The notes: generated by a model from the letters alone, not told the origin. Counted from the stretch's first letter, positions 24,720-54,617 are shown. The stretch: 64,000 nucleotides of DNA from an uncultured virus (IMG/VR IMGVR_UViG_3300008266_000011) (IMGVR_UViG_3300008266_000011); one strand, 5' to 3'. Numbers and translations are program-made.

Positions 24720-25847
24720 CTAGTTGGTGTAGACCTTGACGATAGCCTGGTCTGTAATAACACCTAGACCCCAGATTGCGTACCAAGCAAGAGCGTGCTC
24801 ACGACCAAAGTCAAGAACACCACCATCACGAAGTTCAACTGGGAGAGAGATTGCGTGACCAAATGCATTGTCACCAATCATGATTGATTCGTAAACCTCA
24901 GCACCGTTACCAGTTGCAGAAGTTAAGTAACCCTTTTCAGCAGTGAAATCTGCAGACTCTGGGTTACCGCCTGAACCTGGACGAGTGTTAGCCTTAACAG
25001 GAACCTCAATCTGAGACGCAGGAACTCCTACGCTTGTTGAAGTTGTATAAGAAGCGTTAACAGCCAACTTCTTAACCTGTGTGGTTTCGATGAATACTAC
25101 GTCGTATAGACGTCCAATTTCACCGAGCATGAAGTTTCCTGGAGCAGCGTACTTTGTTACCTCGATGAACTCTGGGTTCGAACGGATATCGCGTGACTGC
25201 TTAGGGTGTACGAACTGTACGTATGTCTCACCGAGACGTGGGATGTTCTTACCAGCAAGGGTAAGAGCAGCATCCTTTACAGCACCTGTTGATAACTTGT
25301 AGTTACCATCTAGGTCTGAGAACTGTGTTGCTGCGGCACCTTCGTTGTACCAGTCATTGACACCCTGTAGTGCAGAGCGGTCATAACCAAATACTGCAGA
25401 TGTTGCTGCAGATAGTGTGTTACGTGCCTGTACATCTAGGTACTGTGCCATGTGGCGACCAAGAAGACGTGAGGCAGAAGCCATTACGTCATCGAAGGAT
25501 GCGTTGAGAAGAAGTTCAGAAACTGCTACTGCGTAGCCGTGTTCTGCAACAGTAATTGCAATCTGCTCTGCAGTAAGAGCGTTCGTTGTCATACGAACAC
25601 CTTCTGTTAGAGGAGATGGGTCTACTGCAAAGTTCTTGTAACGAAGGAAGTTCACACGAAGACCAGGAGCAACTCCTAGTTCAGTCTTCTTTACAGCAAA
25701 CTGTTCAAAACGAAGAATTGGCATTGCCTGGAAGAGGATTTCCTTCGACCAGATTGTTTGAATTGCTTGATTCAGGGATGTATTAGAGCCTGAATAAGCG
25801 GTAGGGGCGCTGGCTAGTTGACCAGTACCTGTAATTGCACTTGCCAT
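24720..25847 (-). CDS. Major capsid protein (N4-gp56 family)
   Basis: LTEGV, EHG.AV.VSE, FVHP.Q..D, GEIGRL..V.FIET, DFGR...AWY motifs. Confidence 0.9.
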   Translation of the reverse strand: MASAITGTGQLASAPTAYSGSNTSLNQAIQTIWSKEILFQAMPILRFEQFAVKKTELGVAPGLRVNFLRYKNFAVDPSPLTEGVRMTTNALTAEQIAITVAEHGYAVAVSELLLNASFDDVMASASRLLGRHMAQYLDVQARNTLSAATSAVFGYDRSALQGVNDWYNEGAAATQFSDLDGNYKLSTGAVKDAALTLAGKNIPRLGETYVQFVHPKQSRDIRSNPEFIEVTKYAAPGNFMLGEIGRLYDVVFIETTQVKKLAVNASYTTSTSVGVPASQIEVPVKANTRPGSGGNPESADFTAEKGYLTSATGNGAEVYESIMIGDNAFGHAISLPVELRDGGVLDFGREHALAWYAIWGLGVITDQAIVKVYTN

Positions 25848-35303: not shown

Positions 35304-35471
35304 TTAATCTTCGCGGTTGCGCAAGGGATACGTTGCAATCCATGCAACTAAAGTTCCGACTGTTGCCCAACCAACCACGGTCTTTGCGCTTCCATCAAGC
35401 ACAACCCAGGCAATAAACATACCCAGTAGTGTCCATAATTGGTCTAACATGTCTCTAAAGAACTTAATCAT
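35304..35471 (-). CDS. Small two-TM membrane protein
   Basis: MIKFFRDMLDQLWTLLGMFIAWVVLDGSAKTVVGW...; ATGA coupling to the 871-aa gene. Confidence 0.65.
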   Translation of the reverse strand: MIKFFRDMLDQLWTLLGMFIAWVVLDGSAKTVVGWATVGTLVAWIATYPLRNRED

Positions 35472-38122: not shown

Positions 38123-38356
38123 TTATACTGGTTTCCAATTTCTTCGCACTATAAATTTAGAAGCAACATTTTGTGAATTAACAGATTCACCTTGTACACC
38201 TCTGCCACGGTTTGACCATGACACAACACTTGGTTCTGCTTTTGATTTGTAACCTAAGTTTGCATTGTAACCAAAGTGTTGTTTAATTCCACGACGTTGA
38301 TTAACACGTAGTGTTTGTCTCTGCATTTTGGGAGAACCAAATACTTCATCCATCAA
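38123..38356 (-). CDS. Hypothetical basic protein
   Basis: ORF track. Confidence 0.5.
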   Translation of the reverse strand: MMDEVFGSPKMQRQTLRVNQRRGIKQHFGYNANLGYKSKAEPSVVSWSNRGRGVQGESVNSQNVASKFIVRRNWKPV

Positions 38357-38709
38357 CTTACTCCTGCCGCTCCATTGAATGTTGTGCCACCAATTCCCAT
38401 AGTATCTGCAGCAGTTGCTGTCTTCTTTGAGTTACTCATCTTCTTTGGTGGATTAGGGACTTCACTTCTAACATCGCCAGAGCCCATTGCTCCAATCATG
38501 TTTGGGTAGTTACCATACCAATATCCGGCACCTGTATATCCTGATTCTTTTTTTCGTCCAAATCTACGCATCTGTTGTGCTTCAACATTTGGCATCATAT
38601 TAAACTGAGAAGCCAATCCACTTACTCGTGGACCAATGCTGTATCGACCATAGGTGCCTTTTACTCCGCCCATCATGCCAACGCCAACTCTATAGAGATT
38701 GCTTGCCAT
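38353..38709 (-). CDS. Hypothetical Gly-rich protein
   Basis: Start refined to MASNLYRV. Confidence 0.5.
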   Translation of the reverse strand: MASNLYRVGVGMMGGVKGTYGRYSIGPRVSGLASQFNMMPNVEAQQMRRFGRKKESGYTGAGYWYGNYPNMIGAMGSGDVRSEVPNPPKKMSNSKKTATAADTMGIGGTTFNGAAGVS

Positions 38710-38899
38710 AATTAAACACACCTTCTGGGTCGTAGACCTCAATAGATTTTAAAACTAAAGAGGTAGCAACTTTGCGAGCATGATGCCCACAAAAATACAA
38801 CTCTCCAGTTAATAGCGTTGCACGAACCATTGCTGCCGCTCCACACTTGTCACATCTATCCTGAGCGGTTAGAGGTGCTCTTGTGTCGATAGCGGTCAC
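38690..38899 (-). CDS. Small actinobacterial-type zinc-binding protein
   Basis: LTA.DRCD.CGA.A...L.FCGHH motif. Confidence 0.7.
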   Translation of the reverse strand: MTAIDTRAPLTAQDRCDKCGAAAMVRATLLTGELYFCGHHARKVATSLVLKSIEVYDPEGVFNYGKQSL

Positions 38900-40345: not shown

Positions 40346-40844
40346 GAATTTCCTCTGGTATCGAGTCGTTAAACTCGGTTAGCGGAATTCTCCATGAACC
40401 TTCTGGTGCATACTTCCATTCGTCTCGCTGTACATCTTCCATACGAAGCCAACCATACACCTCTACCTCTGAGTAGTAGTCACGGTCAAGTACGCGTGCG
40501 CCCACGAGAAGGCGACCAGGCTTTATATCTTTAGGAAAGACTGGAATCTCATCACGGGTTCTAACGCTCTTTACTTCAACATGCGCACCAACATCAGGAA
40601 TATGTTGGCGATAGACATGCTCTTCATTTGGATAGAACGGAAATGTTAGTGGCATCTTATAAAGTTTGGCTACAGCATACTCTGCAACGATAGTTCTAAC
40701 GTTTGCTGCAATCTCTGGTTCCAGTTTAAACTTATTATCACCTGCATAGTTTGGGCGGTCAACACTGCCCCACTTCATCATCCAACGATTTAAAGCAATA
40801 TCTGCACAGGCGCGTACTTCTTCTTTATTTAGGTTAACAATCAT
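40338..40844 (-). CDS. Hypothetical protein, PD-(D/E)XK-like
   Basis: AEYAVAK...PDVG..VEVKS. Confidence 0.5.
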   Translation of the reverse strand: MIVNLNKEEVRACADIALNRWMMKWGSVDRPNYAGDNKFKLEPEIAANVRTIVAEYAVAKLYKMPLTFPFYPNEEHVYRQHIPDVGAHVEVKSVRTRDEIPVFPKDIKPGRLLVGARVLDRDYYSEVEVYGWLRMEDVQRDEWKYAPEGSWRIPLTEFNDSIPEEIHV

Positions 40845-40895
40845 ATAGGCCCCTACCTTTTGTGGAGGTAGGAGCCTATCAGACGTTTTGGACTA

Positions 40896-41978
40896 CTAGA
40901 TAGTCTTGAACTTAAACTTCTTAGCCATCTTGTTGTATGCCTTCTTGATGTCAGCAACAGCCTTTGTGAGGGCGGTCACTTGTGCAGTCAATTCGGCAAT
41001 TGCTTTGTCAGAAGCAGCCTTGGCAACAGCAGCGTCAGCAGCAGCCTTATCGGCAGCGGCCTTAGCATCTGCAGCGGCTTTGGCAGCAGCAGCATCTGCA
41101 GCAGCCTTGGCAGTTGCAGCAGCAGCGGTTGCAATTGCAGCATCAGCAGCACGAGCCGTCTTTTCAGCGGCTAGGTCAGCCTTTGCTTTTGCAATGTCAG
41201 CAGCAAGACCTGCATTGATTGTTGCAAGGTCAGCAATATCAATAAATGCAGTCTTTGTTTTAGCGGCAGCAGCAAAGCCAGTCACATCAGTTGCAGTGAC
41301 AGCAAGTGCTACAGCAGCACGTCCAGCAGTTGCTGGGAATGTTAGGGCGACTTCTGTTGTGCCGTCTGCTGCAGTAGCAGCGATAGTTCCAACAGTTAGA
41401 CCAACAGCAGCAGCGGTTGGTGTTACGCCTGCAACAGCATTACCAAATGCATCGGTGACCTTTGCAATTACTTTTGTAGAGGAAGATGTATTAGCGCTAG
41501 CGGCTGGTTCAAATGCCAAGTTATAGGCTGCACCAGCAGTTCCCTTTACATAATAGATAAAGGAGTTGCCTTTGCTTGTGATAGTTACAGAGCCAAGAGC
41601 GGTTGTCTTTGTAAAGACATAGAAGTCAACGGTAGTTCCAGTTCCGGTGCTTACAGAGTATGAAGCAGCGCCTGCAGAGGCGGTTACTGGAGCAGTGGTG
41701 GTTGCAAGAGCAGGAACAATGAATGCGTTAACAGTAACTACTGAAACAACAGTTCCAGTTTCAATTCCAGTTAGTGCAAATTTAACAGCGTCTGCTGCAT
41801 CTACAGAGTTATCTGCAGGAACAGTTACAGTTGCTGGTGTGTTAGCCACAGTAGCGGTTGTTACAGCAGTTCCATTTATAGACACTGCAATAGTTGGGAC
41901 GTTTGCTGATGCTGGGGCTACTGAGAGGAAAGAACCTGCTAATGCTGCAGCAACTAGCAGAGATAGTTTCTTAATCAA
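40896..41978 (-). CDS. Secreted Ig-like protein with Ala-rich coiled-coil C-terminus
   Basis: Signal peptide ending APASA; VTDAFGNAV Big-like motif. Confidence 0.65.
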   Translation of the reverse strand: MIKKLSLLVAAALAGSFLSVAPASANVPTIAVSINGTAVTTATVANTPATVTVPADNSVDAADAVKFALTGIETGTVVSVVTVNAFIVPALATTTAPVTASAGAASYSVSTGTGTTVDFYVFTKTTALGSVTITSKGNSFIYYVKGTAGAAYNLAFEPAASANTSSSTKVIAKVTDAFGNAVAGVTPTAAAVGLTVGTIAATAADGTTEVALTFPATAGRAAVALAVTATDVTGFAAAAKTKTAFIDIADLATINAGLAADIAKAKADLAAEKTARAADAAIATAAAATAKAAADAAAAKAAADAKAAADKAAADAAVAKAASDKAIAELTAQVTALTKAVADIKKAYNKMAKKFKFKTI

Positions 41979-42064
41979 GGAGTCTCCTTAGTTCGTGAAT
42001 GAAAGATGGGCAGTTTTTGCGTGCTCATGCCCAGGAGCCTCTTATTAAATTGTGCTTGCGAAGG

Positions 42065-42559
42065 TTACTGGATATCTATGGTTCTTGGCTTCTTATGCTC
42101 AGGAATTTCTCGTTCTAAGCGAATTGACAGGATTCCATCTCTCATTGAGGCTGAGATGACCTTAACGTCATCTGCCAGAGCGAAGTTCTGTTCAAAGTCA
42201 CGAGCGGCTATACCTTTGTGAACATAGTCAGCGGCATCAGAATCCTTCTTACCTGTAACAGTAAGTTGATTCTCTTTGTAGACGATGTCGATGTCTTCTT
42301 TAGTGAAGCCAGCGGCAGCAATCTCGATTAGATAAGTCTCTTCGTCATCAATCTGGATAATGTTGTATGGGGGATACGTTGATTTGCTTGCATTACGCAA
42401 CTCCTCAAGAAGTTGGAAGTGTCTGTCAAATCCGACAGTCCAAGAACTTAAGAATGGATTGAGAAGTTGAAATGGGTCGGTTGGTTTATTTACAGGGTTT
42501 CCGTAATTGTAATCTGGATATTTTTTGTATTGCTTTTTAGATACTTCATAGGGTGTCAT
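42065..42559 (-). CDS. Small heat-shock protein (Hsp20/IbpA-like)
   Basis: YPPYNI, A.AGF..EDI, HKGIA.R.F...F.L, DGIL.I.L. Confidence 0.95.
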   Translation of the reverse strand: MTPYEVSKKQYKKYPDYNYGNPVNKPTDPFQLLNPFLSSWTVGFDRHFQLLEELRNASKSTYPPYNIIQIDDEETYLIEIAAAGFTKEDIDIVYKENQLTVTGKKDSDAADYVHKGIAARDFEQNFALADDVKVISASMRDGILSIRLEREIPEHKKPRTIDIQ

Positions 42560-42649: not shown

Positions 42650-43201
42650 TTACTTCTTGTACTGTTGCTCTATCTGAAACGGCCCAGAAGTATTTACATC
42701 TATCTTCTCAGCAACAGCCATGGCCTTTTCTGGCTTTACTCCGCCATATAAAGCGCCCAAAGCATATGGAGAACCAGAGCCAACGCCATAGAACCCTGCA
42801 TCTGACATACAGACCGATAAGTCATCGGCAATATCAAATATCTGACCATTAGCGGCAACTAACAAATTGAACCTGGATTCACCAGATTTACCATCAGATT
42901 TGCCCTCATCAAAGTCGTAGCCATTAGTCTCTAGGCATTTACGAAGTGATGGCATCAATTTAGCAATAACAAAGTGATATGTATCTTTTCTATCTTTGGC
43001 AGTCATAGCAGGTGGATTCCATAGATGTTGTGCGATATCGCATGGTGCAACTTCACCAGAACCTGCAACAAGATAATCGCCGACCTTGCTAATCTTCTTC
43101 ATATCTGGATGTTTGTAACGGCGCCCACCATCAAGTGTTACTTGATTGTCTGCCATAAACAAGCAGTGGTCCTCGTATTGGACTCCAATGATTGTTGTCA
43201 T
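42650..43201 (-). CDS. HslV/proteasome-like Ntn-hydrolase peptidase
   Basis: Start MTTII (N-terminal Thr nucleophile), D.QVT, KI, GSGS.YALGAL, D.NT.GP. Confidence 0.8.
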   Translation of the reverse strand: MTTIIGVQYEDHCLFMADNQVTLDGGRRYKHPDMKKISKVGDYLVAGSGEVAPCDIAQHLWNPPAMTAKDRKDTYHFVIAKLMPSLRKCLETNGYDFDEGKSDGKSGESRFNLLVAANGQIFDIADDLSVCMSDAGFYGVGSGSPYALGALYGGVKPEKAMAVAEKIDVNTSGPFQIEQQYKK

Positions 43202-43390
43202 GGTCTTCCCTTCGCTTAGGGCTAAGGATACCAAATGGCCCTAGAGGGACTCCAACCTAAAGAGATGTCCGTTTTGCGCCCTTTGAATGCTTTTTCTTCC
43301 TTGTATAGACCTTCTTAGAGGGAATGGGGGTAGCAGCGCTAGAGCGCCTCAACTCCTGGACCTTCTTGACCCTGGCAGGATTGGGGCTCT

Positions 43391-43834
43391 TCATCCCTCT
43401 TCAGCCCAACGTTTGCGTCTCTTTTCAGGGGTCTCTTTAACTCTTTCAAGGATTTTATTGTCTGTAACTATAACGGGATGATTATGCATCGCCTCTAAAC
43501 TTTCGACCTTGAAGCCCTTCTTAGATACATAGATATTGGGGATATCTTTTGCAAGACGCAAGTTCTTCTTTACTGGGTCATTTCTCCATGGCTCTGTCTC
43601 TGCATGCATTTCCTTTGCATCAACAGGACTGACTTTGTAGAGATAAGTAAATAATGACTTTGGGTCTCTAGTGTAGTCGCGTTCAGCATCTAGGTGCGAG
43701 AAGTTATCTGCATACGCTCTATCTGTCGTAGCGTGAGCATGGTCCATCTCCATTGGCTTAATAATATCGCCCTTGTTAAATGGATGACTAGAACCATGAA
43801 ACAATGGTTGAGATAAGTTATCTGATGCGCTCAT
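43391..43834 (-). CDS. ADP-ribosyltransferase-like (Arr-type fold), tagged
   Basis: MSASDNLSQPLFHGS...GDIIKP...AHATT...LYKV.P. Confidence 0.6.
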   Translation of the reverse strand: MSASDNLSQPLFHGSSHPFNKGDIIKPMEMDHAHATTDRAYADNFSHLDAERDYTRDPKSLFTYLYKVSPVDAKEMHAETEPWRNDPVKKNLRLAKDIPNIYVSKKGFKVESLEAMHNHPVIVTDNKILERVKETPEKRRKRWAEEG

Positions 43835-44259
43835 GCCTTCATCTCTCTAGGCGGGTTGTACTTACGGGTACGTGACTTCAATTGTGTGCCACTGTTTATA
43901 TTATCTTTCACGTTATAGACACGACGGTGCTTAGTAACACCAGTTACTCTAACCTTTGCGCCCTCTTGAACTGGGACCTCCTTCTCACCAAATGGGTCCT
44001 TGTTTCCAAAGTTTGCAAATCCTCTATCACGTAGTCGAGTAAAGTCAGTCTCTACAGCAGATACAGGAATCTGGGCATGATATGTCTCGCCTCGTTCCCA
44101 ATTAGGCCAGTGGATATGCTTTGTAGCGAATTCGTCGGCCTTGTCTCTGTCAGCAGACCAGTGCATGCCCAACTCGCCCTTGTCGACTGTCTCTTTACCT
44201 TTGAAGCGCAGGCCGCGATGTGCCTCAAAGAACAACTCGTTAGATAGTGGAGAACTCAT
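43831..44259 (-). CDS. ADP-ribosyltransferase-like (R-S-ExE type), tagged
   Basis: Start refined to MSSPLSNELFFEAHRG; GMHWS; EKEV. Confidence 0.55.
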   Translation of the reverse strand: MSSPLSNELFFEAHRGLRFKGKETVDKGELGMHWSADRDKADEFATKHIHWPNWERGETYHAQIPVSAVETDFTRLRDRGFANFGNKDPFGEKEVPVQEGAKVRVTGVTKHRRVYNVKDNINSGTQLKSRTRKYNPPREMKA

Positions 44260-44453
44260 ATGCTCCACCAGCCACGTATGGTGCCGCCTTGTGGACAGAT
44301 GTTCCAATCCGCTTTGCCATCTGCAATCCATTGCTTATGTGCAAGATTAACTGTCGTCCAATTAGTCTCATGCGTATCGCGCCCGCACGCGAGGCATACT
44401 TCCGCCCCGATATCTTTATACACATGTTCGCAGGTCAGAGTTAAGTTACTCAT
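44256..44453 (-). CDS. Small zinc-binding protein
   Basis: MSNLTLTCEH...CLACG; coupled on both sides. Confidence 0.55.
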   Translation of the reverse strand: MSNLTLTCEHVYKDIGAEVCLACGRDTHETNWTTVNLAHKQWIADGKADWNICPQGGTIRGWWSI

Positions 44454-44827
44454 TACTGCTCCGGAACTTCGGTACGCCGCGGTGGCAATTTACCGCCGAC
44501 TGCTTTTGCCCATACATTTCCTGTATCAGTTCTATCTTTAGAATGTTGTGGCGCCTTTATTCCAGTATCGGCTGCTAACTTATGTGCCTTCTCCCATAGA
44601 GAGGTAGCAAGACCAAGGCCACGATAGTCTTGATGAGTACGTATCCAGTCGACATTGCCACTCTTCTTATGCCAGATTATTGTTCCTAGTTGATGAGCAG
44701 GATTGGCTTCGTTATATGCGGAAAGAGTATGCATTGAATCTCTGCCTTCTGGTGGAAAATATCTAAATTGAACGCCTGATAAGTTTCTTGGCTTTCTTGG
44801 GTCGGATGGCTTTGGCGTCTGCTTCAT
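44453..44827 (-). CDS. GNAT acetyltransferase-like, tagged
   Basis: HQDYRGLGLATSLW...HS.DRT..G..WA; RNLSGVQF. Confidence 0.75.
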   Translation of the reverse strand: MKQTPKPSDPRKPRNLSGVQFRYFPPEGRDSMHTLSAYNEANPAHQLGTIIWHKKSGNVDWIRTHQDYRGLGLATSLWEKAHKLAADTGIKAPQHSKDRTDTGNVWAKAVGGKLPPRRTEVPEQ

Positions 44828-45327
44828 GTCACATCTCTTCTTAAAGCACGAGAAATCTTTTTGCTGAATGGTCTTGTCTTCTTGCCCTCTGTATACAGGT
44901 CAGCATGTTCGGCAGGAGTGCTAAGTGTCCTAAAGCCTTTCATACCACTGCGCTCTTGAAACTTCTTTAGCGGCTCTATTAGAGGCATATCTGCAGTCTT
45001 ATCGAATTGTCTATGAGTTAGGTCTACAGCATGCATGCCCTCCGTTGTGGGCACGTGATGTATGAAGTGGTTGCTATACCAGTCTGCTTCGTTAGTTGAT
45101 TTTGGATTATAGTGCTTACCACCGTATACAGCCACGTGAGAGCCGTGAGGCATGCTTCCATGTACTAGACAGGTAGCGTCATAACATTGACCACCTGGTT
45201 CTCTTTGAATGCTCTCCATAGTTGTCTTGTATGGAGTATCTTTAATTGCGCCCTTAACATGTTCTGTTAATTCTTTTGGCGTCATGATTAGTGGGTCTTG
45301 TACCCATTGCTTACCTAGGTTACTCAT
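44824..45327 (-). CDS. Cys-His-Asp (papain/transglutaminase-like) enzyme, tagged
   Basis: Start refined to MSNLGKQW; GQCYDA...NHF...VDLT.RQFD. Confidence 0.5.
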   Translation of the reverse strand: MSNLGKQWVQDPLIMTPKELTEHVKGAIKDTPYKTTMESIQREPGGQCYDATCLVHGSMPHGSHVAVYGGKHYNPKSTNEADWYSNHFIHHVPTTEGMHAVDLTHRQFDKTADMPLIEPLKKFQERSGMKGFRTLSTPAEHADLYTEGKKTRPFSKKISRALRRDVT

Positions 45328-45644
45328 AAGTCTTCTTCCTCTACCACGTTCTCTGGTGGCTTCTCTGCTAATCCTTTGCGATAGAGGGACCAAGACCAAT
45401 CATCTCCTGCTTGAGAACGAGTCATTGAATGACTTGGATTAAGGCCAACTTCTTGGGCGTGCTTCCACATTCCTGTGGCGATTCCTTTATTTTGGTGTTC
45501 TTCTTTAACGTAGACATCTTCTACTACACCACTGTCTTTACCTAAGTGCAGCCAACCTACTGGTTCATTTTTTAAATGGGCAGAAACTGTATTGATTTGA
45601 CCATCGGTTTGATGTTTAAATTGAATTGGAGATAAGTTACTCAT
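45324..45644 (-). CDS. GNAT acetyltransferase-like, tagged
   Basis: MSNLSPIQF; V.EEHQNKGIATGMW...HS..RS.AG..W. Confidence 0.75.
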   Translation of the reverse strand: MSNLSPIQFKHQTDGQINTVSAHLKNEPVGWLHLGKDSGVVEDVYVKEEHQNKGIATGMWKHAQEVGLNPSHSMTRSQAGDDWSWSLYRKGLAEKPPENVVEEEDL

Positions 45645-46180
45645 CAGTCCCTACTAAAATCAATCATGCCCTGCATTTGTCGGGCGCTTAATAAACGACC
45701 ACGTTTTGGCAATTCTCCGCCAATCTTCTTGGCCCACTCTTCTCCCTCTTTGGTTCTCATGCTTGAATGCTTTGGTTCTGGAATTCCCATATCAGAGCGC
45801 TCTTTTGCGTAGTTCCATAACTTTGTTGCAAGTCCTTTACGGCGATAATCTGGATGCGTTTCTACGCCTTGTACTTTGCCTTCGGCATCAAGGTTCATAT
45901 TAGCGAGCATCTTGCCGCTCTTCTTATCACTTAATATAAAGAAGTGAGGATGCTGTCTAGTGAAGTAGTGATGATAATCAATACGATGCTCTTCATCTTC
46001 TGCAGAGTGGCTATATGGTTGACCTGGATGTTTTGTTTGGACATGTTCTACATATCTGTCGCCAAAGAATCTAGCAGGGCAATGAGGACAGGCTAACCCT
46101 GGAAAACGCATAAGCGTCCGACCATTCTCCATCCTTGGGATTGGAGCGTCACCGCCGTGTGCTACAGATTCGTCGCTCAT
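45644..46180 (-). CDS. C2H2 zinc finger plus GNAT acetyltransferase-like
   Basis: CPHC...HVQTKH; HPDYRRKGLATKLW...HS.MRT.EG..WA. Confidence 0.75.
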   Translation of the reverse strand: MSDESVAHGGDAPIPRMENGRTLMRFPGLACPHCPARFFGDRYVEHVQTKHPGQPYSHSAEDEEHRIDYHHYFTRQHPHFFILSDKKSGKMLANMNLDAEGKVQGVETHPDYRRKGLATKLWNYAKERSDMGIPEPKHSSMRTKEGEEWAKKIGGELPKRGRLLSARQMQGMIDFSRD

Positions 46181-46632
46181 TGGTAACCTCTATCCTGCTT
46201 TGCTTGTTCGAGACTGTCGAAATATTTTACTGGGAAGATATGGCTTTTGAATTGTTCATTTGATAGGGCCACTCTATGGTGACCTCCAAGTATCTCTGGG
46301 GCATACGCATCTATTGAAACAAATCCTTCAGGGGCGCCCTTCTTCTTTGTTATTGATTCAAGAGATTCTTTTGGCTGAATTCCTTGGCGACGAAGAATTG
46401 GTTCATTGATGCTACGTCCAGGTTGAAATGCATCTTTGCCAAAACGTTCTTCACCAGTCATCTTGGCTTCTTTTAACTTGCGTTGCCAGGTATCTGTAGA
46501 GTATTCGTGTTCTTCTATATCTCCAGAGTAAACGCGATGGTTCTTTATAATCTCTGGTCCAGTCATGAACATGGGGCGATAACCAGATTCGATGGCCTTT
46601 GTTAAATCTTTGGGCGGATTACGACGCTTCAT
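46177..46632 (-). CDS. ParB/Srx-like domain protein
   Basis: L.SI.K.G...ILGGHHRV. Confidence 0.55.
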   Translation of the reverse strand: MKRRNPPKDLTKAIESGYRPMFMTGPEIIKNHRVYSGDIEEHEYSTDTWQRKLKEAKMTGEERFGKDAFQPGRSINEPILRRQGIQPKESLESITKKKGAPEGFVSIDAYAPEILGGHHRVALSNEQFKSHIFPVKYFDSLEQAKQDRGYQ

Positions 46633-47102
46633 GCTGTCATCTGCCTTGGTGGGTTGTATCTGCGAGTACGTGGCTTTGTTTTTACTTCTTTTGATATTCC
46701 AGGTATTGCACTTGGCGCTTGACTTGGGCGTTCTATTCTTCGATATTTTGTTCTACCTGTCACCAGTACAGGTGCGCCAGGGCGAACTGATATCTCTTTC
46801 TCGTGTTCAGCAAGGCCGCGAAATTGTGCGCTAGAAGAGTTAGGGTCAAAGACGCCACGAGAACCTAAAACTTTTCTACTAGTCTCTACAGAACTTATAG
46901 GCACCTTGGCATGGATTACTGTATTTGGTTGAGGCCTATCTGAAGCATGCCAGACATTTGGGGTATATCTCTTTCCGCCACCAGAGAAGCCGAATGCTAC
47001 AGATTTATCTGCAGACCAGTGCATACCTAGTCCACGGTCTTTACTGGGAGAATCTTTTAATCCTCTATGGGCTTCAAAAAATAATTCGTTAGAGATGCTC
47101 AT
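46629..47102 (-). CDS. ADP-ribosyltransferase-like (R-S-ExE type), paralog of 43831-44259
   Basis: MSISNELFFEAHRG, GMHWSAD, EKEI, RTRRYNPPR. Confidence 0.55.
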   Translation of the reverse strand: MSISNELFFEAHRGLKDSPSKDRGLGMHWSADKSVAFGFSGGGKRYTPNVWHASDRPQPNTVIHAKVPISSVETSRKVLGSRGVFDPNSSSAQFRGLAEHEKEISVRPGAPVLVTGRTKYRRIERPSQAPSAIPGISKEVKTKPRTRRYNPPRQMTA

Positions 47103-47383
47103 GCTTCACCTACTATCTTGAATCCTGTAGGAGAGCCGTAATTAACTTCTCCCTCATAATAAGGATGTTCTCCAGAAATCATGTCTTTTGCTGGTTCAAC
47201 TTGATAAATTTTTAATGGGCCGACTTCTCCAAATGGCATCTTTGTACTGCCATACTCTTTTGCAGCATCTCTTGATGTAGTTGCCCAGGCTAATCCTCTG
47301 CTATCAGGCAGAATATGGGTTCCCTTGATAACGGCCTTAGTTCCGTGGAACAATGCTTTAGAGAGATTATCAGAGGCTGCCAT
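47099..47383 (-). CDS. ADP-ribosyltransferase-like (Arr-type fold), tagged
   Basis: MAASDNLSKALFHGT...AWATT...IYQVEP. Confidence 0.6.
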   Translation of the reverse strand: MAASDNLSKALFHGTKAVIKGTHILPDSRGLAWATTSRDAAKEYGSTKMPFGEVGPLKIYQVEPAKDMISGEHPYYEGEVNYGSPTGFKIVGEA

Positions 47384-47410
47384 ACGCCAAGTATGAGGCC
47401 ATTACTGAGA
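47384..47410 (-). promoter_or_regulatory. Leaderless promoter
   Basis: CAGTAATGGCCT-CATACT-6 nt-ATG. Confidence 0.6.
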
Positions 47411-47423
47411 AAATTTGGGTTGA

Positions 47424-47870
47424 TTAAGAAAACTGCTGAGGATTAAGGTTATTGCTCTTCATTAAGCCCTCAAATCTTTCGCCTAACTCCTTGTCATGAG
47501 TCTCAGTATGTTGACGATAGTGGTCTAGTTCAGAACGAAGTTTTGGCATATGTCTAGAAAACGCCTTAGTAATGGGATGCTTTTCACCTAAGTTGTAATG
47601 CGCTACCTGATGACCTGACGAAAGAGCATCATAGACGTGTCCCATGTGAGTTGAGGCTTCTGAGTAGTTCCTCTCTTCATGTGCCTGATTAGCAAAAGTA
47701 TGATGCATGTTGGCTGCATCTAAATACTTTTTTAAATAGACTGAGGTAACTGCGGCATGAGTGCCCTGTGTAAGTTTGTTATTTTCTAACGAATATTGGA
47801 TACCCCCGACCAAGGCTCCGAATCTCCAGTGAGCCTTGTCTTTATCCATAGGACCGCTAAGAGGATTCAC
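47424..47870 (-). CDS. His-rich helical protein with C-terminal tag
   Basis: Ends NNLNPQQFS. Confidence 0.6.
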   Translation of the reverse strand: MNPLSGPMDKDKAHWRFGALVGGIQYSLENNKLTQGTHAAVTSVYLKKYLDAANMHHTFANQAHEERNYSEASTHMGHVYDALSSGHQVAHYNLGEKHPITKAFSRHMPKLRSELDHYRQHTETHDKELGERFEGLMKSNNLNPQQFS

Positions 47871-48050
47871 TTATTCCCCTTCGTAACCTCTGTTATAAGA
47901 ACTTTCGTACTCATCAAAGTCACGTTCACTGGCGCCAAATTTGTGAGGAATCTTCAAAGCCTCAGAGAGGTCTTCGCCATAAGGCAACTTGGAAATCTCA
48001 TCAGGGTTGTTGTAATCCTCAAACTGAGGACCTAGGTTTCTGTTTGACAT
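47871..48050 (-). CDS. Acidic 59-aa tagged protein (not in the ORF track)
   Basis: MSNRNLGPQFEDYNNPDEISKLPYGEDLSEALKIPHKFGASERDFDEYESSYNRGYEGE. Confidence 0.65.
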   Translation of the reverse strand: MSNRNLGPQFEDYNNPDEISKLPYGEDLSEALKIPHKFGASERDFDEYESSYNRGYEGE

Positions 48051-48075
48051 CCCCCAAGTATGAGGCTACTGCCTC
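48051..48075 (-). promoter_or_regulatory. Leaderless promoter
   Basis: AGGCAGTAGCCT-CATACT-6 nt-ATG. Confidence 0.6.
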
Positions 48076-48094
48076 AAAAAGTTAGCGTGAAATC

Positions 48095-48232
48095 TTATTT
48101 CTTAGGGGAGGTAACCTTATATGGCTCTAATTTGGAGCGAATTTTGCCATCCTTATTTAATCTAACTATCCAGCCATCTTTAATCTGGGTCTTATTGAAT
48201 CCACGATGTGGTTTAAATTTGCCGCTACTCAC
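48095..48232 (-). CDS. Small basic protein
   Basis: SD GGAGG before GTG; SSGKFKPHRGFN.TQIKDGWIVRL.KDG. Confidence 0.55.
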   Translation of the reverse strand: MSSGKFKPHRGFNKTQIKDGWIVRLNKDGKIRSKLEPYKVTSPKK

Positions 48233-48406
48233 TATTCCTCCTAAATAATCCCCAATACTCGATACTGAACCAGAAGAAGCCCAAATCAACTGATGTCCAG
48301 GAGGAGTTAATCTCAAATCCGATGGCTAATCTTCTAAATGAAGAGCCGCCATATAGCCAGACCTTGCCCGCTTTAAATTCAAAACTCATAGAAAGAGCCT
48401 ACCACA

Positions 48407-48736
48407 TCAATGCTGGACATGAATCTTGCCATCCTTCATCGTTACATTGAAGCCAGATTCTTGTAGAGCATCATGTACCCGTTTATTCTGGCCCTGAAGA
48501 TACTCAGCGCTAGGTCTAGTCAATGATTCTCCTTGCCAATGAACGATAGTAGTATTCTCATCAACAGGGGTATATACAACTCCAGAGGACAAACGAGATG
48601 GTCCTCTGCCACTTATCTTCCTACGGGGGCCCAATAACTTAGGGTTCAAGGCACGAGTCAACCTGACTTGGTTGTTTTTGATGCTTCTAGCCTTCTGGAG
48701 GGCATCACCATCAAACTGCTGGCTCAGGTTGCTCAT
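48407..48736 (-). CDS. Hypothetical tagged protein
   Basis: MSNLSQQF start. Confidence 0.6.
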   Translation of the reverse strand: MSNLSQQFDGDALQKARSIKNNQVRLTRALNPKLLGPRRKISGRGPSRLSSGVVYTPVDENTTIVHWQGESLTRPSAEYLQGQNKRVHDALQESGFNVTMKDGKIHVQH

Positions 48737-49041
48737 GTGGTCTCTCGTATTTTAGCCCGTATCTCATCTGGAGATACTTCTCCCTTAACTTGAAAGCCTT
48801 CACCAGATACATAATGACTACCCTCCCATTGCATTTGCTCTGAAGAGGGGTTAACCTCGTACACACGGGAGCCATGACCAGCAGCATGTAAGATATCGGT
48901 AGTTGCATGAGCCACTTTGTAGTCTGGCTCTTGCTCTTCATCCACCGCTTTTGAGTACTTAGGGTCAACCCAGTCTCCTGGCTTCAAAACTGCATTAGTC
49001 CCGTGGAATAACCTAACGCTGAGGTTGTCTGAGGCTGCCAT
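48733..49041 (-). CDS. ADP-ribosyltransferase-like (Arr-type fold), tagged
   Basis: MAASDNLSVRLFHGT...LKPGD.V.P...AHATT...VYEV.P. Confidence 0.6.
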   Translation of the reverse strand: MAASDNLSVRLFHGTNAVLKPGDWVDPKYSKAVDEEQEPDYKVAHATTDILHAAGHGSRVYEVNPSSEQMQWEGSHYVSGEGFQVKGEVSPDEIRAKIRETT

Positions 49042-49065
49042 TAGCCCAGTTTAGGCTACTGCCTA
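49042..49065 (-). promoter_or_regulatory. Leaderless promoter
   Basis: AGGCAGTAGCC-TAAACT-6 nt-ATG. Confidence 0.6.
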
Positions 49066-49119
49066 GCCAAAAACACCTCAACCATGTGTCTCACCTGGGG
49101 GTTCTGCTGCGGTTTTTCA

Positions 49120-49860
49120 CTTAATGGTGGGGGGTGTTGTTGTAATTATTATTTGTAACTCAACCACCTGACTACTAATCAGGTGGTAATTGTTCAACTC
49201 ATGCTTTGTTATCAGGTGTGACAAATAACTTGATGACAATAATGATGACGATAACAATAAATAACTTTGGCTACTGTATTTATAGCGACATGGCTTGTGC
49301 GGATACCACCAAGCCAACAGGTCACTTGGCTAGTTGTTATCACATAGTTATTAGTTATCTGATTCAGGTATCTATTGGGTTATGTAGTTACTTAATAGTT
49401 GTTACAACTATCTATCTCTATCAACTGACTATGACTAACTCAGTTGGTCTTTTCTCCTTGTAGCGACTATCTATCTCTGGCGGATTCTCTTCAGGTGATA
49501 GTTAGTTAGTAAGTAACTCTCTGGCGTGTAGTCGGACTTACTTACTTTATCCACACAGTAACTCGCTTGTTTGTGACAGCAGATGACTATTAGTTACTTA
49601 TTTAGGTATCTATGTGGCTATTACAAACTTCTTTATTTGTATTAGTTATTTATCTATTCTTCTATCTAACTTATTACATTCTTTGTATTAGTCATTACTG
49701 AAAAGAAAAACTCTTGGCGCGATTAGTTATGTGGGGGCGCACGCTCAAGGGGCTAAGTAACTTGGGTGGAACAGGTAGAAGACGAGTTGGGGGGGTGGGG
49801 GCTCTAGGCTCAAAAAGCCCTATAAACGCCTGTTATCGGGGGTGGCGAACTGAGTCGGTC
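49120..49860. other. AT-rich non-coding region between divergent modules (candidate genome end or origin)
   Basis: No credible ORF; many TAGTTA/TAACT/CTATCT words; G-runs at both edges; compositional boundary. Confidence 0.5.
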
Positions 49861-49863
49861 AGT

Positions 49864-49881
49864 TATGGCATAATTGGGGCA
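49864..49881 (+). promoter_or_regulatory. Putative promoter for the large RNA and early operon
   Basis: CATAAT at 49869-49874 then TGGGGC-A; same geometry as the leaderless promoters. Confidence 0.5.
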
Positions 49882-50525
49882 TGCCTTCGGGTGGCTCTTA
49901 GCGGAAAAGCCCCTAGCGCATTTGAACCTAGAAAATTACATAGTGACTAAGAAACCGCGATTTAGTTTCTCAATCGTAAAAACTGTTTAGACGATTCATA
50001 GAAAATGATTTTACTTTTCTTATGACGGCAGTTATTCAGTAATAGGTCATCAGACCGCGAACAATGTTCAACTGACGAAAAAGATTTACGCATTACGCGA
50101 CTAAATGATTGAAACCAATGGAACGCACGAAATGATTTCTATGCGAAGACCTTGTTATCCGCGATAACTAATTCAGTTGCTCAAACTTACCGCGCAACTA
50201 ATTACGAGCGATTAAAGATACAAGCGAGCAGAGCGCAATCCTAAATGTTTCTTTTAACGATAATGAAAATTATTGTGAATAGCGGTCTGACTTAGAAGAG
50301 AGTTACGGAAAGTTGAATAACTCAACTACTCATTACTTATGGATTGCTAACTATTAGTTAGTGCCGTCAGTAACCAATCTGAAATAAGAACAATGACAGT
50401 AGTGAGCAAGTGAGTTATACATACTTAGTAATTCCGCTATGTGTTTTAAGAACTTATGTTCTTACTGTGATTGTCATTCATACCGATTCAGCGAATGAGA
50501 TTGAATGACAATCGCGGTAGTCACA
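49881..50525 (+). ncRNA. Large, highly structured non-coding RNA (~640 nt; family unassigned)
   Basis: Seven 7-9-bp long-range complementary pairs, local hairpins, and an 18-bp stem with G-U pairs; no credible ORF. Confidence 0.75.
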
Positions 50526-50546
50526 TAACAGGAAAGAGGCAACACA

Positions 50547-51298: not shown

Positions 51299-52657
51299 AT
51301 GACTACAACGCAATACGGCGTATTACTCGCCTCACAACCAACTGATGTATCACTTACACGACAAGTTGTTATCGCAAACATTGACAACAAACTTGTCTGC
51401 TACTCACGCCTTACCAATGGCAAGCAAGGAAAACAGAACGCATGGCAGGAAGGCAGATTCAATTACGATAGTGGCGAACCACTAATCGGTGAGCCTGTCG
51501 CAATTCCTGTATCACAGAATGATGTTGATGATTACAACGACAATGGATTCCCACGAGTTCTAATTCAGAAACTCATTCGTAAGCACTCACTATCTGACCA
51601 AACAATTACTGATGAAGCGATTACTGTCGCAGATTCAATTTGGGAAGCGTTCGATAATGACCCTTCATCACTTGCTACATACTTTGTTGATAATCGCGGT
51701 CAGCGTTCAACAAAAGGTTCTGTTGTATCTCACGATTCTGTTATTCAGATTCGTAGCGCAACAACACAAGTAGCACAATCACTTGTTGAAGAGCGTTCGC
51801 TCTATCTACCAAGTGTTACTGAGTTCTCTCACTACATCTCACGCAAGTTTGCTGGTGATGTTGATGAATTAACTATGTATCAGTTCGCACTTGCTAACAA
51901 GATGAATGTTCTTCTTTACGGAGAAGCAGGAACAGGTAAGACTTCCTCAACAATGTGGATTGCTTCTTTACTTGGACTTCCATACTTTGCGATTCCTTCT
52001 AACTCAGCACTTGATTACACACAGATTGTTGGCGGTTATGTTCCAAACGCTAATGGTTCTTTATCTTGGGTTGATGGCGCAGTTACTCGCTTAGTTCGTA
52101 ATGGCGGTGTTCTTCTTATCGGTGAAGTAAATACACTCGCTAAGAATGTTCAACAGTTCTTAATGCCATTACTTGATTACCGCCGTTCAATTACTGTCAT
52201 GGAGAATGGCAACGAAGTTATCAAGGCGCATGACAACTTGTTAATTATCGCTGACATGAATCCAAATTATCGTGGCACACAACTTCTTAACGAAGCATGG
52301 AAAGACCGCTTTGAGATTAAGTTGAACTTTGGTTATGACCGCGACATTGAGAAGAAGATTCTTAAATCTGAATCTCTATTGGAACTTGCTTATGGCATGA
52401 GGTCGCGTTCTCGTGGTGCTGATTCACATTACTCAGGTGATAGCAACACTATCTTTGATACTCCTGTATCAACTCGTATTCTCAAAACCTTTGAGAAGTT
52501 AGCAACTGAATTGTCATTCGAGTTTGCTTGTGAAGTATTCGCAAACAACTTTGATGAGAATGAGCGACCAGCAGTTAAGTTGTTGCTGGAAGCAAACACT
52601 TACAACCTTCAAGCAGATTTAGGTTTGCTTGAATCTGTTACCAATACTTCTGTTTAG
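51299..52657 (+). CDS. MoxR/CbbQ-NorQ-type AAA+ ATPase
   Basis: GEAGTGKT, W.DG, LLIGEVN (Walker B variant), MNP.YRGT..LN.A..DRF. Confidence 0.9.
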   Translation: MTTTQYGVLLASQPTDVSLTRQVVIANIDNKLVCYSRLTNGKQGKQNAWQEGRFNYDSGEPLIGEPVAIPVSQNDVDDYNDNGFPRVLIQKLIRKHSLSDQTITDEAITVADSIWEAFDNDPSSLATYFVDNRGQRSTKGSVVSHDSVIQIRSATTQVAQSLVEERSLYLPSVTEFSHYISRKFAGDVDELTMYQFALANKMNVLLYGEAGTGKTSSTMWIASLLGLPYFAIPSNSALDYTQIVGGYVPNANGSLSWVDGAVTRLVRNGGVLLIGEVNTLAKNVQQFLMPLLDYRRSITVMENGNEVIKAHDNLLIIADMNPNYRGTQLLNEAWKDRFEIKLNFGYDRDIEKKILKSESLLELAYGMRSRSRGADSHYSGDSNTIFDTPVSTRILKTFEKLATELSFEFACEVFANNFDENERPAVKLLLEANTYNLQADLGLLESVTNTSV

Positions 52658-52667
52658 AAAGGTAATC

Positions 52668-54617
52668 ATGTCACTACCCGAACTTACCGAGTTCGCTAAG
52701 TTAGCGAATGATTTATTGGTAGAAGAAGAGGAACGCAATCGCGCACGCATTGAGCGATTGACTCGTTACTTCTCTCGCGTTAATTCCGCACTTACATTCC
52801 GCGAAATTAAAGTGTCAGTTGAATCTTCTTTGATTGAAGCACCTGCTTGGTCGGGTGCTTCTGACATAACACTTAACTCACGACTCATTAACGACTTTAA
52901 CAATGGCGTTAGTGTTGCGAATCTTCGTGGTCTTAACTTCCACGAGTTATCGCACATTCTCTATACCCCACGACATGGTTCAGAGATTGTTACTTGGGTC
53001 AATGAGAAGGGTTATCGTAGAGCGTTTAATGCGTTAGAAGACCAGCGCATTGAAACTCTATTCACCGCACGCTTTCCTTCTACAACAGATTGGTTTGTTG
53101 TAACGATTCTGACTTACTTTGTTAATGACGAAAAACAATTCCAAACTTCTTATCCGTTGCTTCGTGGTCGTAAGTATCTGCCACTAGCAATTCGTGAGAA
53201 GTCGCGTGAGTTGTTTCCGTTCCAAGATAAGTTAGATGAGATTTGTGAAATCGTTGATGAATACAGAACTCTTATCTATCCAATGGATACAGAGATTGGA
53301 AAAGTTCTTGTTGAGCGATTCCATAATCTAATTGACTCACTTCCTCAGCATGGTGACGGAGAAGGTAAGAGTGGTAATGGTGAATCCAAAGAAGGAGAAT
53401 CCAATACTGTTGATTACAACGACCTTGCTGATTGGGAAAAAGAACTGTTAAAAGAAGCGACACCTGCTAATCCAAATAGCGGTAAGCCGACTACAACAAT
53501 TCTTAATTGCCCATTCGGTCACGAAACACGACCAACAGAAGGCATTGAGCCAACGATTCTGTCACGACCACAGACCGCTAAGAATCAGAAGCGTGATAGC
53601 GAACGCGCCAAGCAATTAGATAAGACGATTGCTGATGAAGCAAAACCACAATCACAATCACAATCTAATTCGCAACCACAACCACAAACAGACTCACCTT
53701 CACAAGAAGGTGGTAACTCTGCTGGCAATACAGGCTCTCTTATCGAGATACTAAAGACCGCGATAACTGATGTTATGGATAAAGAAAGTGTTGCTAAAGA
53801 AGTCACCGAGATTATTCGTGTGATGAAGGGGCTTCCTTCTTTATCTAGTAACAATCTTGAAGAGCCTGAACTTGCTCACTACACAAAACAAAATCCTGAC
53901 AGTAAAACACTTTCTTCTTCTCTCTCTTTCGCTCGTGAGTTAGAGAGATTGAAAGCAAAGTTTGACCCTGCTTGGGATAAGTATGAATCGCGTGGCAAAT
54001 TAAATGCTTCACGATTCATTCGTGGTGATGATTTAGATACTGTATTTGATACATGGAATGAAGGTAGAGAAGACGCTACTGAAATTGAGTGCGTAATCAT
54101 TCTCGACAATTCAGGTTCAATGTCAGGTCGCAAATCAACTCAGGCTTATCGTGCTATGTATGCCATTAAGTATGCGCTCGATAAAATTGGTGCTAACTGT
54201 TCTGTTATCACTTTCAATCATGAAACCAATGTTCTTTATCGGGCAACTGATAGAGCAAACAATGTCATTCGTGATAGTGGCGCAACAGGTGGCACTAATG
54301 CTGAATACGCAGTTCGTTACGCAACTAAGTTGCTCGCTGAATCAGATAAACCTGTCAAACTGTTCTACGCCATTACTGACGGCGAATGGTCTGATAGTGA
54401 AGTGTGTGATGAAGAGATAAAGAAGTTATCTCGTGCTGGTGTTCTCACCGCGTTCGCATACATACCTGATAGTCACGAAGAAATGATTGGATTAACTCAT
54501 GAGAAAGCGCATTACTCAGATGTTGCTTCTGTGATTAACAATCCATTCGATTTAGTTGGTATGGCTCGCACAATCGTTCGCAACGCGATTGCTCGCAGAG
54601 TTACTTCCAACTCATAG
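52668..54617 (+). CDS. vWA/MIDAS protein with N-terminal HExxH domain (CobT/NorD-like partner)
   Basis: FHELSH, NALED.RIE, DNSGSM, GGT, ITDG; start refined to ATG 52668. Confidence 0.85.
   Translation: MSLPELTEFAKLANDLLVEEEERNRARIERLTRYFSRVNSALTFREIKVSVESSLIEAPAWSGASDITLNSRLINDFNNGVSVANLRGLNFHELSHILYTPRHGSEIVTWVNEKGYRRAFNALEDQRIETLFTARFPSTTDWFVVTILTYFVNDEKQFQTSYPLLRGRKYLPLAIREKSRELFPFQDKLDEICEIVDEYRTLIYPMDTEIGKVLVERFHNLIDSLPQHGDGEGKSGNGESKEGESNTVDYNDLADWEKELLKEATPANPNSGKPTTTILNCPFGHETRPTEGIEPTILSRPQTAKNQKRDSERAKQLDKTIADEAKPQSQSQSNSQPQPQTDSPSQEGGNSAGNTGSLIEILKTAITDVMDKESVAKEVTEIIRVMKGLPSLSSNNLEEPELAHYTKQNPDSKTLSSSLSFARELERLKAKFDPAWDKYESRGKLNASRFIRGDDLDTVFDTWNEGREDATEIECVIILDNSGSMSGRKSTQAYRAMYAIKYALDKIGANCSVITFNHETNVLYRATDRANNVIRDSGATGGTNAEYAVRYATKLLAESDKPVKLFYAITDGEWSDSEVCDEEIKKLSRAGVLTAFAYIPDSHEEMIGLTHEKAHYSDVASVINNPFDLVGMARTIVRNAIARRVTSNS

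Follow-up and report, generated by a model that had tools for sequence, protein, structure and literature searches.

Encapsulin cargo-loading peptides are short, lie at either terminus and direct unrelated enzymes into a shell of the HK97 fold; the locus described here likewise carries a short terminal peptide, at either end, on unrelated enzymes, whereas the shell would in this case be a DNA-filled phage head. In the available portions of PMC3012670, the internal proteins of T-even phages are described as diverse and as having only the capsid targeting sequence (CTS) in common, a short N-terminal peptide that is the sole thing uniting small proteins of a variable locus, as it is here, and, as far as the accessible part of PMC5512222 describes them, one cargo class is in both cases an ADP-ribosyltransferase (ART). 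The present locus differs from T4 in phage lineage, probably in tag sequence, and in tag placement, some tags being C-terminal or lying 14 residues from the start; the tag also partly overlaps a catalytic strand, and a classical prohead protease is absent. Polyvalent proteins (Iyer et al. 2017) are predicted, in the accessible part of PMC5512222, to undergo packaging and delivery together with the DNA. They have an Arr-type ART, a putative R-S-E ART, a GNAT and a ParB-like candidate in common with the array, and one pair of such giants adjoins a terminase gene. In contrast, the array modules are separate genes with their own terminal tag, which the giants lack, no array polypeptide combines two or more effector domains, and a zincin peptidase module is missing.

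The window, that is, the whole 64-kb stretch of DNA analyzed, comes from a myovirus (~97 kb) of low-GC freshwater actinobacteria, in which the first minus-strand genes make up a rapidly changing array of effector modules that stand alone. The array lies ~14 kb upstream of the head genes, beside a divergent regulatory region, a place in which early genes would be expected, and this early-type location was counted against virion loading. Neighboring genes overlap by ATGA, and some have upstream DNA elements in common. An intergenic element, GCCTCATACTTGG (47384..47413, minus strand), contains an xAxxxT hexamer ending 6 nt before the A6 ATG and recurs ahead of A4 (48051-48080), while a variant of it precedes A1 (49042-49075); on sequence grounds, elements of this type are possible leaderless promoters. 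With ≤3 mismatches allowed, the 21-nt upstream element has no match but itself, and its 13-nt core is found only before A4 and A6, plus one 1-mismatch site elsewhere. A strong hairpin at 40879-40845 may mark the end of the array operon. Small shares of the region were present in four metatranscriptome runs, with contigs identical to the window covering 46846-47150 and 47615-47870; these indicate presence in RNA libraries rather than timing or level, and uncovered parts of the array are uninformative. A nucleotide search of cultured phages gave no match, and the host search in genomes returned one MAG contig only, which looks mis-binned.

All array genes lie on the minus strand and encode single-module proteins of 45-178 aa. 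Three are Arr-like ARTs of a family designated F1: A1 (48733..49041, 102 aa, with tag MAASDNLSVRLF at 49006-49041), A6 (47099..47383, 94 aa, tag MAASDNLSKALF) and A15 (43391..43834, 147 aa, tag MSASDNLSQPLF). Two are putative R-S-ExE ARTs of a second family, F2, namely A7 (46629..47102, 157 aa), the start of which, MSISNELFF, is a degenerate tag fused to a domain-intrinsic segment, and A14 (43831..44259, 142 aa, start MSSPLSNELFF). Among the three GNATs, A10 (45324..45644, 106 aa) starts with the tag MSNLSPIQF, A12 (44453..44827, 124 aa) bears RNLSGVQF at residues 14-21 (44765-44788) behind a Pro/Lys-rich leader, a position kept in 6 orthologs, and A9 (45644..46180, 178 aa) has a zinc-finger-like N-terminal part and no tag. 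The basic A2 (48407..48736, 109 aa) begins MSNLSQQF, its ortholog in locus L013 MSNLGPQF; the acidic A4 (47871..48050, 59 aa) begins MSNRNLGPQF, A11 (44824..45327, 167 aa) MSNLGKQW, and the Cys-rich A13 (44256..44453, 65 aa) MSNLT, which is half a tag only. The His-rich A5 (47424..47870, 148 aa) has a weak MNPLSGPM at its N-terminus and carries its tag at the C-terminus (...KSNNLNPQQFS, 47427-47456), which is identical in its L020 ortholog. The array genes without any tag are A8 (46177..46632, 151 aa, with a GGHHR motif), A9 and the very basic A16 (43257..43394, 45 aa, pI 11.9; phrog_11957, E 2e-9), the conserved last gene of the array; the existence of three untagged genes was also counted against virion loading.

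An initial annotation had proposed that proteins of different predicted folds carry the same short motif near a terminus, and all the termini it listed were indeed found on the minus strand. The flexible terminal peptide has the general form M-S-(A-[SQE]-D)-N-L-[SG]-x-(x)-[QL]-[FW], and searches used the strict pattern NL[SGN].{1,2}[QL][FW]. Across the six frames of the window this pattern yields 9 matches, all within the minus-strand array genes at 43391-49041 (8 at gene starts and 1 C-terminal). Since the pattern was derived from the window, it was also tried elsewhere: the six frames of 29 related loci (366,143 bases) contain 64 matches. The strand that encodes the peptidase discussed below accounts for 58 of them, nearly all 2-5 or 14 residues past an in-frame Met, and the remaining 6 are in short frames of the other strand. 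Many of the loci are nearly identical copies, and the non-identical tag instances number 58. When three related genomes of ~97 kb were shuffled by mononucleotide, 2.2-2.4 matches per genome arose by chance. Within the window and the 29 loci, 67 of 834 same-strand products contain the strict tag, which is terminal in every one of them (first 26 residues in 61, last 24 in 6, never internal). The tagged bodies comprise 19 N-terminal and 3 C-terminal unrelated families, at least 10 of them non-ART, and no strict tag occurs outside the array in other genes of the window or of three complete relatives. In the tags, Leu is encoded by each of its six codons and Ser by codons of both its families, roughly as in the background; because synonymous codons vary freely at background frequency, selection acts on the peptide and not on DNA or RNA. 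A DNA-level repeat was rejected on account of this codon freedom and of the restricted occurrence of the upstream element given above; an N-glycosylation sequon (N-x-S) was also dismissed, since the third position is often Gly or Asn. No tag of this kind was found described in the limited literature searched.

The initial interpretation was supported in part, and its labels for the bodies mostly stood: five ART-like proteins in two families (F1, n = 3; F2, n = 2) and three GNATs were borne out, whereas the ParB-like label of A8 and the Cys-His-Asp label of A11 are language-model leads only. A8 is possibly ParB/sulfiredoxin-like and has no Pfam match. The GNATs match Pfam Acetyltransf_1 at 31.2 (A9), 31.0 (A10) and 22.2 bits (A12), above the cut-off of 20.7. 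Sequence and model comparisons predict A1, A6 and A15 to be Arr-like ARTs: A1 scores 18.1 bits against Pfam Arr-ms (PF12120), below the 25-bit cut-off, and A6 and A15 do not match it, but the F1 profile reaches PDB 2hw2 at E 0.011, the best three Foldseek matches are all Arr (E 6e-4 to 8e-4, TM 0.59), and the His of the HGT strand is invariant in 27 sequences. F2 shows its motifs in order (R13 invariant, HWS present, E101/E103 nearly invariant). By structure its best VIA match is TreX (Z 7.1, rmsd 3.8, 101 aligned), with all 50 of the listed matches being ART-fold or NAD-binding relatives, and Foldseek gave E 0.1 or weaker; a sequence search of PDB with F2 gave no match. With tblastn, A6 found nothing and A7 only weak matches (E ~0.08), to a mycobacteriophage protein of 772 aa (Bixzunavirus). 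In AF2 models the residues before the last two of the tag are disordered, and the caveat raised at the outset, that the final LF/FF of the ART-like proteins is also their first strand, is borne out for A1 (residues 11-15, LFHGT) and A7 (residues 8-15, FFEAHRGL), in which only the preceding residues are disordered. Because the last tag residues sit in this catalytic strand, a T4-like cut after the final F would damage the F1 or F2 enzyme, and this overlap was counted against virion loading with such a cut. In several F1/F2 members, the tag is separate from the domain (NLSEQQF-GPMYHGT; NLGRQW-HQPELSWEVHRG).

The link to polyvalent proteins, which the initial annotation had drawn from recurring domains, proved much stronger than it could know. 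The best 150 matches of the F1 profile comprise 121 small and 29 giant proteins. Among the small ones, 60 start with the strict tag and 76 with a loose version; the giants (400-3995 aa), from other actinobacterial elements, contain the array modules fused and without a tag, with 92 F1 domains in 29, 19 F2 domains in 13 and 23 GNAT domains in 11 of them. Their 50,573 residues hold zero strict tags, and other linkers precede the F1 copies inside them. A label is therefore found where a module is a polypeptide of its own, and the array is a polyvalent repertoire in unbundled form, each polypeptide having one label. Pfam scans of two giants and an L061 relative identified Arr-ms (E 1e-19 to 1e-36), NUDIX, 2'-5' RNA ligase, GNAT and ART-PolyVal domains, and in L061 two giants with array-type modules come after a terminase gene. 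A search of viral contigs with the giant P0039 gave no match.

Downstream of the array lies a gene for an HslV-family Ntn peptidase (42650..43201, minus strand; MTTIIGV...; phrog_1040, E 2.4e-28; Pfam Proteasome, 24.1 bits against a cut-off of 22.4), with a Thr directly after the initiator Met and the start MTTI as in E. coli HslV. The next gene, present in the window's own clade only, encodes an Hsp20 small heat-shock protein (42065..42559, minus strand). The peptidase gene is downstream of the array in every tag-bearing locus, an adjacency that is biased because the peptidase served in part to find these loci, and in the sister clade the two are 3.7 kb apart, with other genes in between. Peptidase homologues of 34-56% identity occur without a nearby tag, and in Phapecoctavirus the gene is found among metabolic genes; both observations were counted against virion loading. 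In two tag-less relatives, L037 and E7 (a cultured Ca. Planktophila phage), the peptidase gene directly follows the portal gene, and the cultured phages E7 and F5 carry no tag. Giants of 1655-1764 aa beside the L037 and E7 peptidases were considered as polyproteins cleaved at the tag, which was rejected as they hold neither a strict tag nor array modules. None of the 80 peptidase-matching records listed is from a Streptomyces phage, which was likewise counted against virion loading, and the limited literature searched yielded no description of an HslV prohead protease.

Our best explanation, offered tentatively and at somewhat less than even probability, is that the tag is a virion-loading address label analogous to the T4 CTS. 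The terminal peptide would dock every module on one common partner, and its likeliest purpose would be to have the modules co-loaded into the procapsid and enter the next cell with the DNA, in a manner resembling the action of the CTS for the T4 polymorphic internal proteins and Alt. The neighboring HslV-like peptidase, the best candidate for a head-associated enzyme of this kind, might read or trim the label in the head. In favor of this reading stand the strictly terminal tag on unrelated families, its free codon use and predicted disorder, the tag-less fused counterparts and the predicted packaging of such proteins, the terminase gene beside the L061 giants, the portal gene beside the peptidase in E7 and L037, and the T-even precedent. 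The tag, its terminal position, selection on the peptide, the identity of the modules and their fused tag-less counterparts are shown, whereas the single reader, its place in the head and any cleavage are inferred. A broader proposal, which we hold to be doubtful, is that the tag is a portable loading and ejection signal replacing covalent fusion, so that a phage could split a giant polyvalent protein into single-effector cassettes that are freely exchanged and self-addressed to the head, and the orphan HslV-like Thr peptidase would be a hitherto unrecognised head-associated protease for the cargo. Further observations count against virion loading: the head, scaffold, portal and tail proteins carry no tag, and relatives sharing the capsid protein family are annotated with portal, scaffold and capsid in succession, without a protease. 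Scaffold mimicry was also considered, as the scaffold starts with MTDTNLSPIE, and was rejected, the NLS not being conserved in 5 relatives.

The constant presence of the peptidase gene after the array would also suit a tag that is a cytoplasmic docking peptide or degron for an orphan HslV-like peptidase, with no packaging, whereby effectors of toxic potential would be destroyed on a timer, or tags would activate the peptidase in place of HslU tails. The tag end, Q/L-F/W, is a plausible site for a chymotrypsin-like Thr protease such as HslV, and no HslU-like ATPase was detected among those window proteins that were compared with PHROGs and Pfam. The E. coli HslU tail (...EDLSRFIL) loosely resembles SDNLSRQF, both being D/N-L-S...aromatic terminal peptides, but HslU-tail mimicry was set aside as resemblance only: the spacing differs, and the HslU tail needs a free carboxylate whereas most array tags are N-terminal. 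Together with the biased adjacency, the untagged peptidase homologues and the 3.7-kb separation in the sister clade, this makes a degron quite unlikely. Bacterial hub-binding motifs are terminal, flexible and short, and the tag, tolerated at either end, could be a short linear motif for a host or phage-made cytoplasmic hub, gathering the modules at one cellular site or in a non-covalent 'polyvalent' complex after synthesis. Such a hub would fit an array with its own promoter-like elements placed where early host-takeover genes are expected, and would explain equally well why only separate polypeptides need a tag. Fused polyvalent modules are, however, thought to act at invasion in the accessible part of PMC5512222, which argues for delivery and not later synthesis, and we regard a hub as unlikely.

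The tag might also have no common reader, if it is a structural cap (inherited or convergent), a scar left at gene boundaries by the shuffling of cassettes, or an aid to translation restart. L-S-x-x-Q-F fits a helix N-cap with a hydrophobic staple, the motif is partly domain-intrinsic in F1/F2 (Arr has YLHGT, and a fused F2 copy ELPEEVHRG), the ATGA overlaps and common upstream elements suit shuffling or restart, and an in-frame Met precedes all three C-terminal tags by 3-6 residues, as expected of a leftover gene start. This is nevertheless distinctly improbable: background codon use makes a DNA or RNA constraint unlikely, the tag occurs on non-ART families, it lies 14 residues in within the A12 family and apart from the domain in several F1/F2 members, and the C-terminal cases are in frame in 3 of 3, with no out-of-frame remnants seen.

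If the tag is an address label, effectors that are injected or co-targeted by freshwater actinophages, which are abundant and mostly uncultured, could be picked out by a simple rule on sequence, and foreign proteins could be loaded by means of a portable handle. Phage HslV-like peptidases may, on the same evidence, have a role in morphogenesis. The pairing of tagged single modules with tag-less giants bears on why polyvalent proteins are fused, and suggests as the reason that one address then serves each polypeptide.

The window is phage DNA, encoding a major capsid protein (24720-25847), a portal (26766-28502) and a large terminase (29312-30889) along with tail sheath and tube, tail fibres, an endolysin, WhiB, an integrase-like gene and ribonucleotide reductase. 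Its capsid protein shares 60-62% identity with those of the Streptomyces phages BRock and LuckySocke. G+C makes up only about 44% of the window, the best matches to the HslV-like peptidase (42-43% identity) are in E7 and F5, described as cultured Ca. Planktophila phages (PMC10202952), and the near relatives are complete IMG/VR genomes of about 96-100 kb with terminal repeats; together these point to a low-GC freshwater actinobacterium as the probable host. The minus strand also encodes two signal-peptide proteins, one of 871 aa (35468-38083), rich in Pro, Thr and Glu and ending in a hydrophobic stretch plus RRRRT, and an Ala-rich one of 360 aa (40896-41978) whose gene is absent from relatives and is skipped by one RNA-library contig, which joins 40844 to 42004.

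Fifteen tightly packed minus-strand genes run from 49041 down to 43257, followed by an HslV-family Ntn peptidase (42650-43201) and Hsp20. The initial annotation had quoted a series of similar protein termini from this region, all of which are present in the array. This tag, a short terminal peptide of the form M-S-(A-[SQE]-D)-N-L-[SG]-x-(x)-[QL]-[FW], was searched for with the strict pattern NL[SGN]-x(1-2)-[QL][FW], which matches nine times across the six frames of the window, each time inside the array. Because the pattern was derived from the window itself, it was tested on 29 non-redundant related loci (366 kb), where 64 matches were found; 58 share the peptidase gene's strand, nearly all of them 2-5 or 14 residues past a Met. 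Many of these loci are closely related, and non-identical instances of the tag number 58. By chance, about 2.3 matches are expected per shuffled relative of ~97 kb. With gene starts assigned by one simple criterion and BLAST (1e-4) used to delimit families, the motif is carried by 67 of 834 same-strand products, within the first 26 residues in 61 and the last 24 in six, and is internal in none of the 67. At the BLAST level, N-terminal tags occur in 19 families and C-terminal tags in 3; a looser pattern marks 31 of 267 families, of which at least three are spurious cases. When the window and three complete genomes were scanned with a position matrix, none of the structural genes showed a tag. 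Tag codons include all six for Leu and both families for Ser, at about background frequency, and selection on the tag thus operates at the level of the peptide.

With array genes numbered from A1 (48733-49041), BLAST groups the encoded proteins into an F1 family (A1, A6, A15), an F2 family (A7, A14) and GNATs (A9, A10, A12), the others being singletons. The domain labels proposed earlier held to different degrees. All three GNATs pass the Pfam cut-off. A1 falls below threshold against Pfam Arr-ms; a 27-sequence F1 profile matches the rifampin ADP-ribosyltransferase 2hw2 (E 0.011), and the three best Foldseek hits of the F1 AF2 model (pLDDT 82) are Arr proteins (E 6e-4 to 8e-4), so that F1 is Arr-like. 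F2 retains Arg, Ser and Glu-x-Glu, ordered as in R-S-E transferases, and its model (pLDDT 74) finds its best structural alignments among ART toxin domains (VIA Z at most 7.1), giving moderate support to a predicted R-S-E-type ART fold. The labels of A8 (46177-46632), which carries a GGHHR motif, and A11 (44824-45327) come from language-model neighbours only and serve as leads. The initial annotation had cautioned that the tag ends in the first ART strand; the models indeed place its final two residues there in both ART families, the preceding residues being disordered. In some ART members the tag is separate from the domain (NLSEQQF-GPMYHGT, NLGRQW-HQPELSWEVHRG). Contigs from RNA libraries match 46846-47150 and 47615-47870 identically, which establishes no more than that DNA or RNA of these segments was present in such libraries.

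The same modules also occur fused. Searching 1.84 billion representatives with the F1 profile returned 1396 matches at E ≤ 0.001, the best 150 of which divide into 121 small proteins and 29 giants, the latter 400-3995 residues long and holding 2-8 F1 copies apiece. The tag stands at the start of 60 (strict) or 76 (loose) of the 121 small proteins, and many others start with near variants such as SDHLN..LF. The strict tag is absent from the 50,573 residues of the 29 giants, where linkers such as [RK][TE]A[AS]...GP precede the F1 copies. Profiles of array families, with E-values relative to this 29-sequence set, identified 92 F1 domains in all 29 giants, 19 F2 domains in 13, 23 GNAT domains in 11 and 10 domains of the FAM19 family in 8; the A11 family profile found none. 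Pfam detects Arr-ms (E 1e-19 to 1e-36), NUDIX, 2'-5' RNA ligase, GNAT and ART-PolyVal in two of the giants (P0036, P0039) and in two on a 69.5% G+C contig (L061). This contig, which holds a relative of one giant, encodes a terminase followed by its two giants of 2510 and 2805 residues, both with F1, F2 and GNAT modules. The giants are polyvalent proteins of the kind that Iyer et al. described as invasion-stage effectors, those of phages being predicted to be carried in the capsid (PMC5512222). Since its modules recur fused in tag-less giants, the array is a polyvalent repertoire in unbundled form; the tag accompanies the separate-polypeptide state.

Several further features of these proteins were recorded. 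Seven of the 29 giants (P0043, P0083, P0084, P0126, P0133, P0143, P0176) start with M-x-[DE]-L-x-x-H-F, e.g. MPDLLRHF, a form that resembles M-S-N-L-S-x-Q-F, observed post hoc, and that may be an N-terminal signal present once per polypeptide. The F2 proteins encoded at 46629-47102 and 43831-44259 of the window, like those of relatives, have the C-terminus ...YNPPR-x-M-[KT]-A, and ...G-[EK]-A closes several F1 proteins, both coinciding with the position of the giants' linker [RK][TEK]AA; these gene ends may be related to the fusion linkers. Gene 89 of Mycobacterium phage Dandelion (L060 5668-7986; 772 aa) weakly matches the F2 profile at residues 109-183 and FAM19 or an A8-like GNHR region at 239-301, the order of window genes A7-A8. 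In a sister clade, the tag is also found on a Gly-rich protein of ~100 residues adjoining a large secreted protein; the window homologue (38353-38742, minus) has only an internal GLASQF. This Gly/Tyr/Met-rich protein looks like the products of two sister-clade genes (L029 13241-13698) fused into one; the second of these genes starts with a full tag, MSNLSHQF.

The array adjoins a 1.5-kb AT-rich non-coding gap (49042-50546) that separates divergent gene blocks, contains many short repeats (e.g. ataactaat, agttac) and might serve in regulation or as an origin. Beyond it, a CobS/CobT-type pair (51299-54617), an AAA_5 ATPase followed by a VWA/CobT-like protein, is the first large unit on the plus strand. 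A minus-strand element shared before A6 (47384-47413) and A4 (48051-48080), with a variant before A1 (49042-49075), consists of a T-run, a 5-bp hairpin with an AGTA loop and CATACT/TAAACT ending 6 nt ahead of the ATG; its stem changes from GAGGC/GCCTC to TAGGC/GCCTA with pairing preserved. These elements look like promoters for leaderless mRNAs.

The peptidase lies downstream of the array in every tag-bearing locus, an adjacency that is biased because the loci were partly collected through the peptidase. Tag-less loci encode homologues at 34-56% identity, and the 80 records that match the peptidase include no Streptomyces phage. In phage E7 (L059 5698-8036) and in L037 (8181-10546) its gene directly follows that of the portal, where a head protease is usually encoded; in Phapecoctavirus it is situated among metabolic genes, and LuckySocke is annotated as portal-scaffold-capsid. 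E7 and L037, small phages without tags, each also encode a giant protein (1655-1764 aa) after the peptidase. The tag might act as a degron for this peptidase or as its activator, a reading we consider improbable; the tail of E. coli HslU (...EDLSRFIL) bears only a loose resemblance to the tag.

Since the motif is found on about 20 unrelated families, and on separate polypeptides only, one common reader is the simplest account of its flexible, terminal, peptide-level character, and little weight is given to a tag that has no such reader. That the reader is a cytoplasmic hub seems unlikely. Recognition as a virion-loading signal is our tentative preference, somewhat short of an even chance. Three points weaken it: the array adjoins the regulatory region, a terminator may lie at 40879-40845, and tag and catalytic strand overlap. 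It fits the T4 precedent described in PMC3012670, what polyvalent proteins are predicted to do and the location of the peptidase beside the portal in relatives. Under virion loading, the tag reader would bring the tagged modules of this unbundled repertoire into the phage head.
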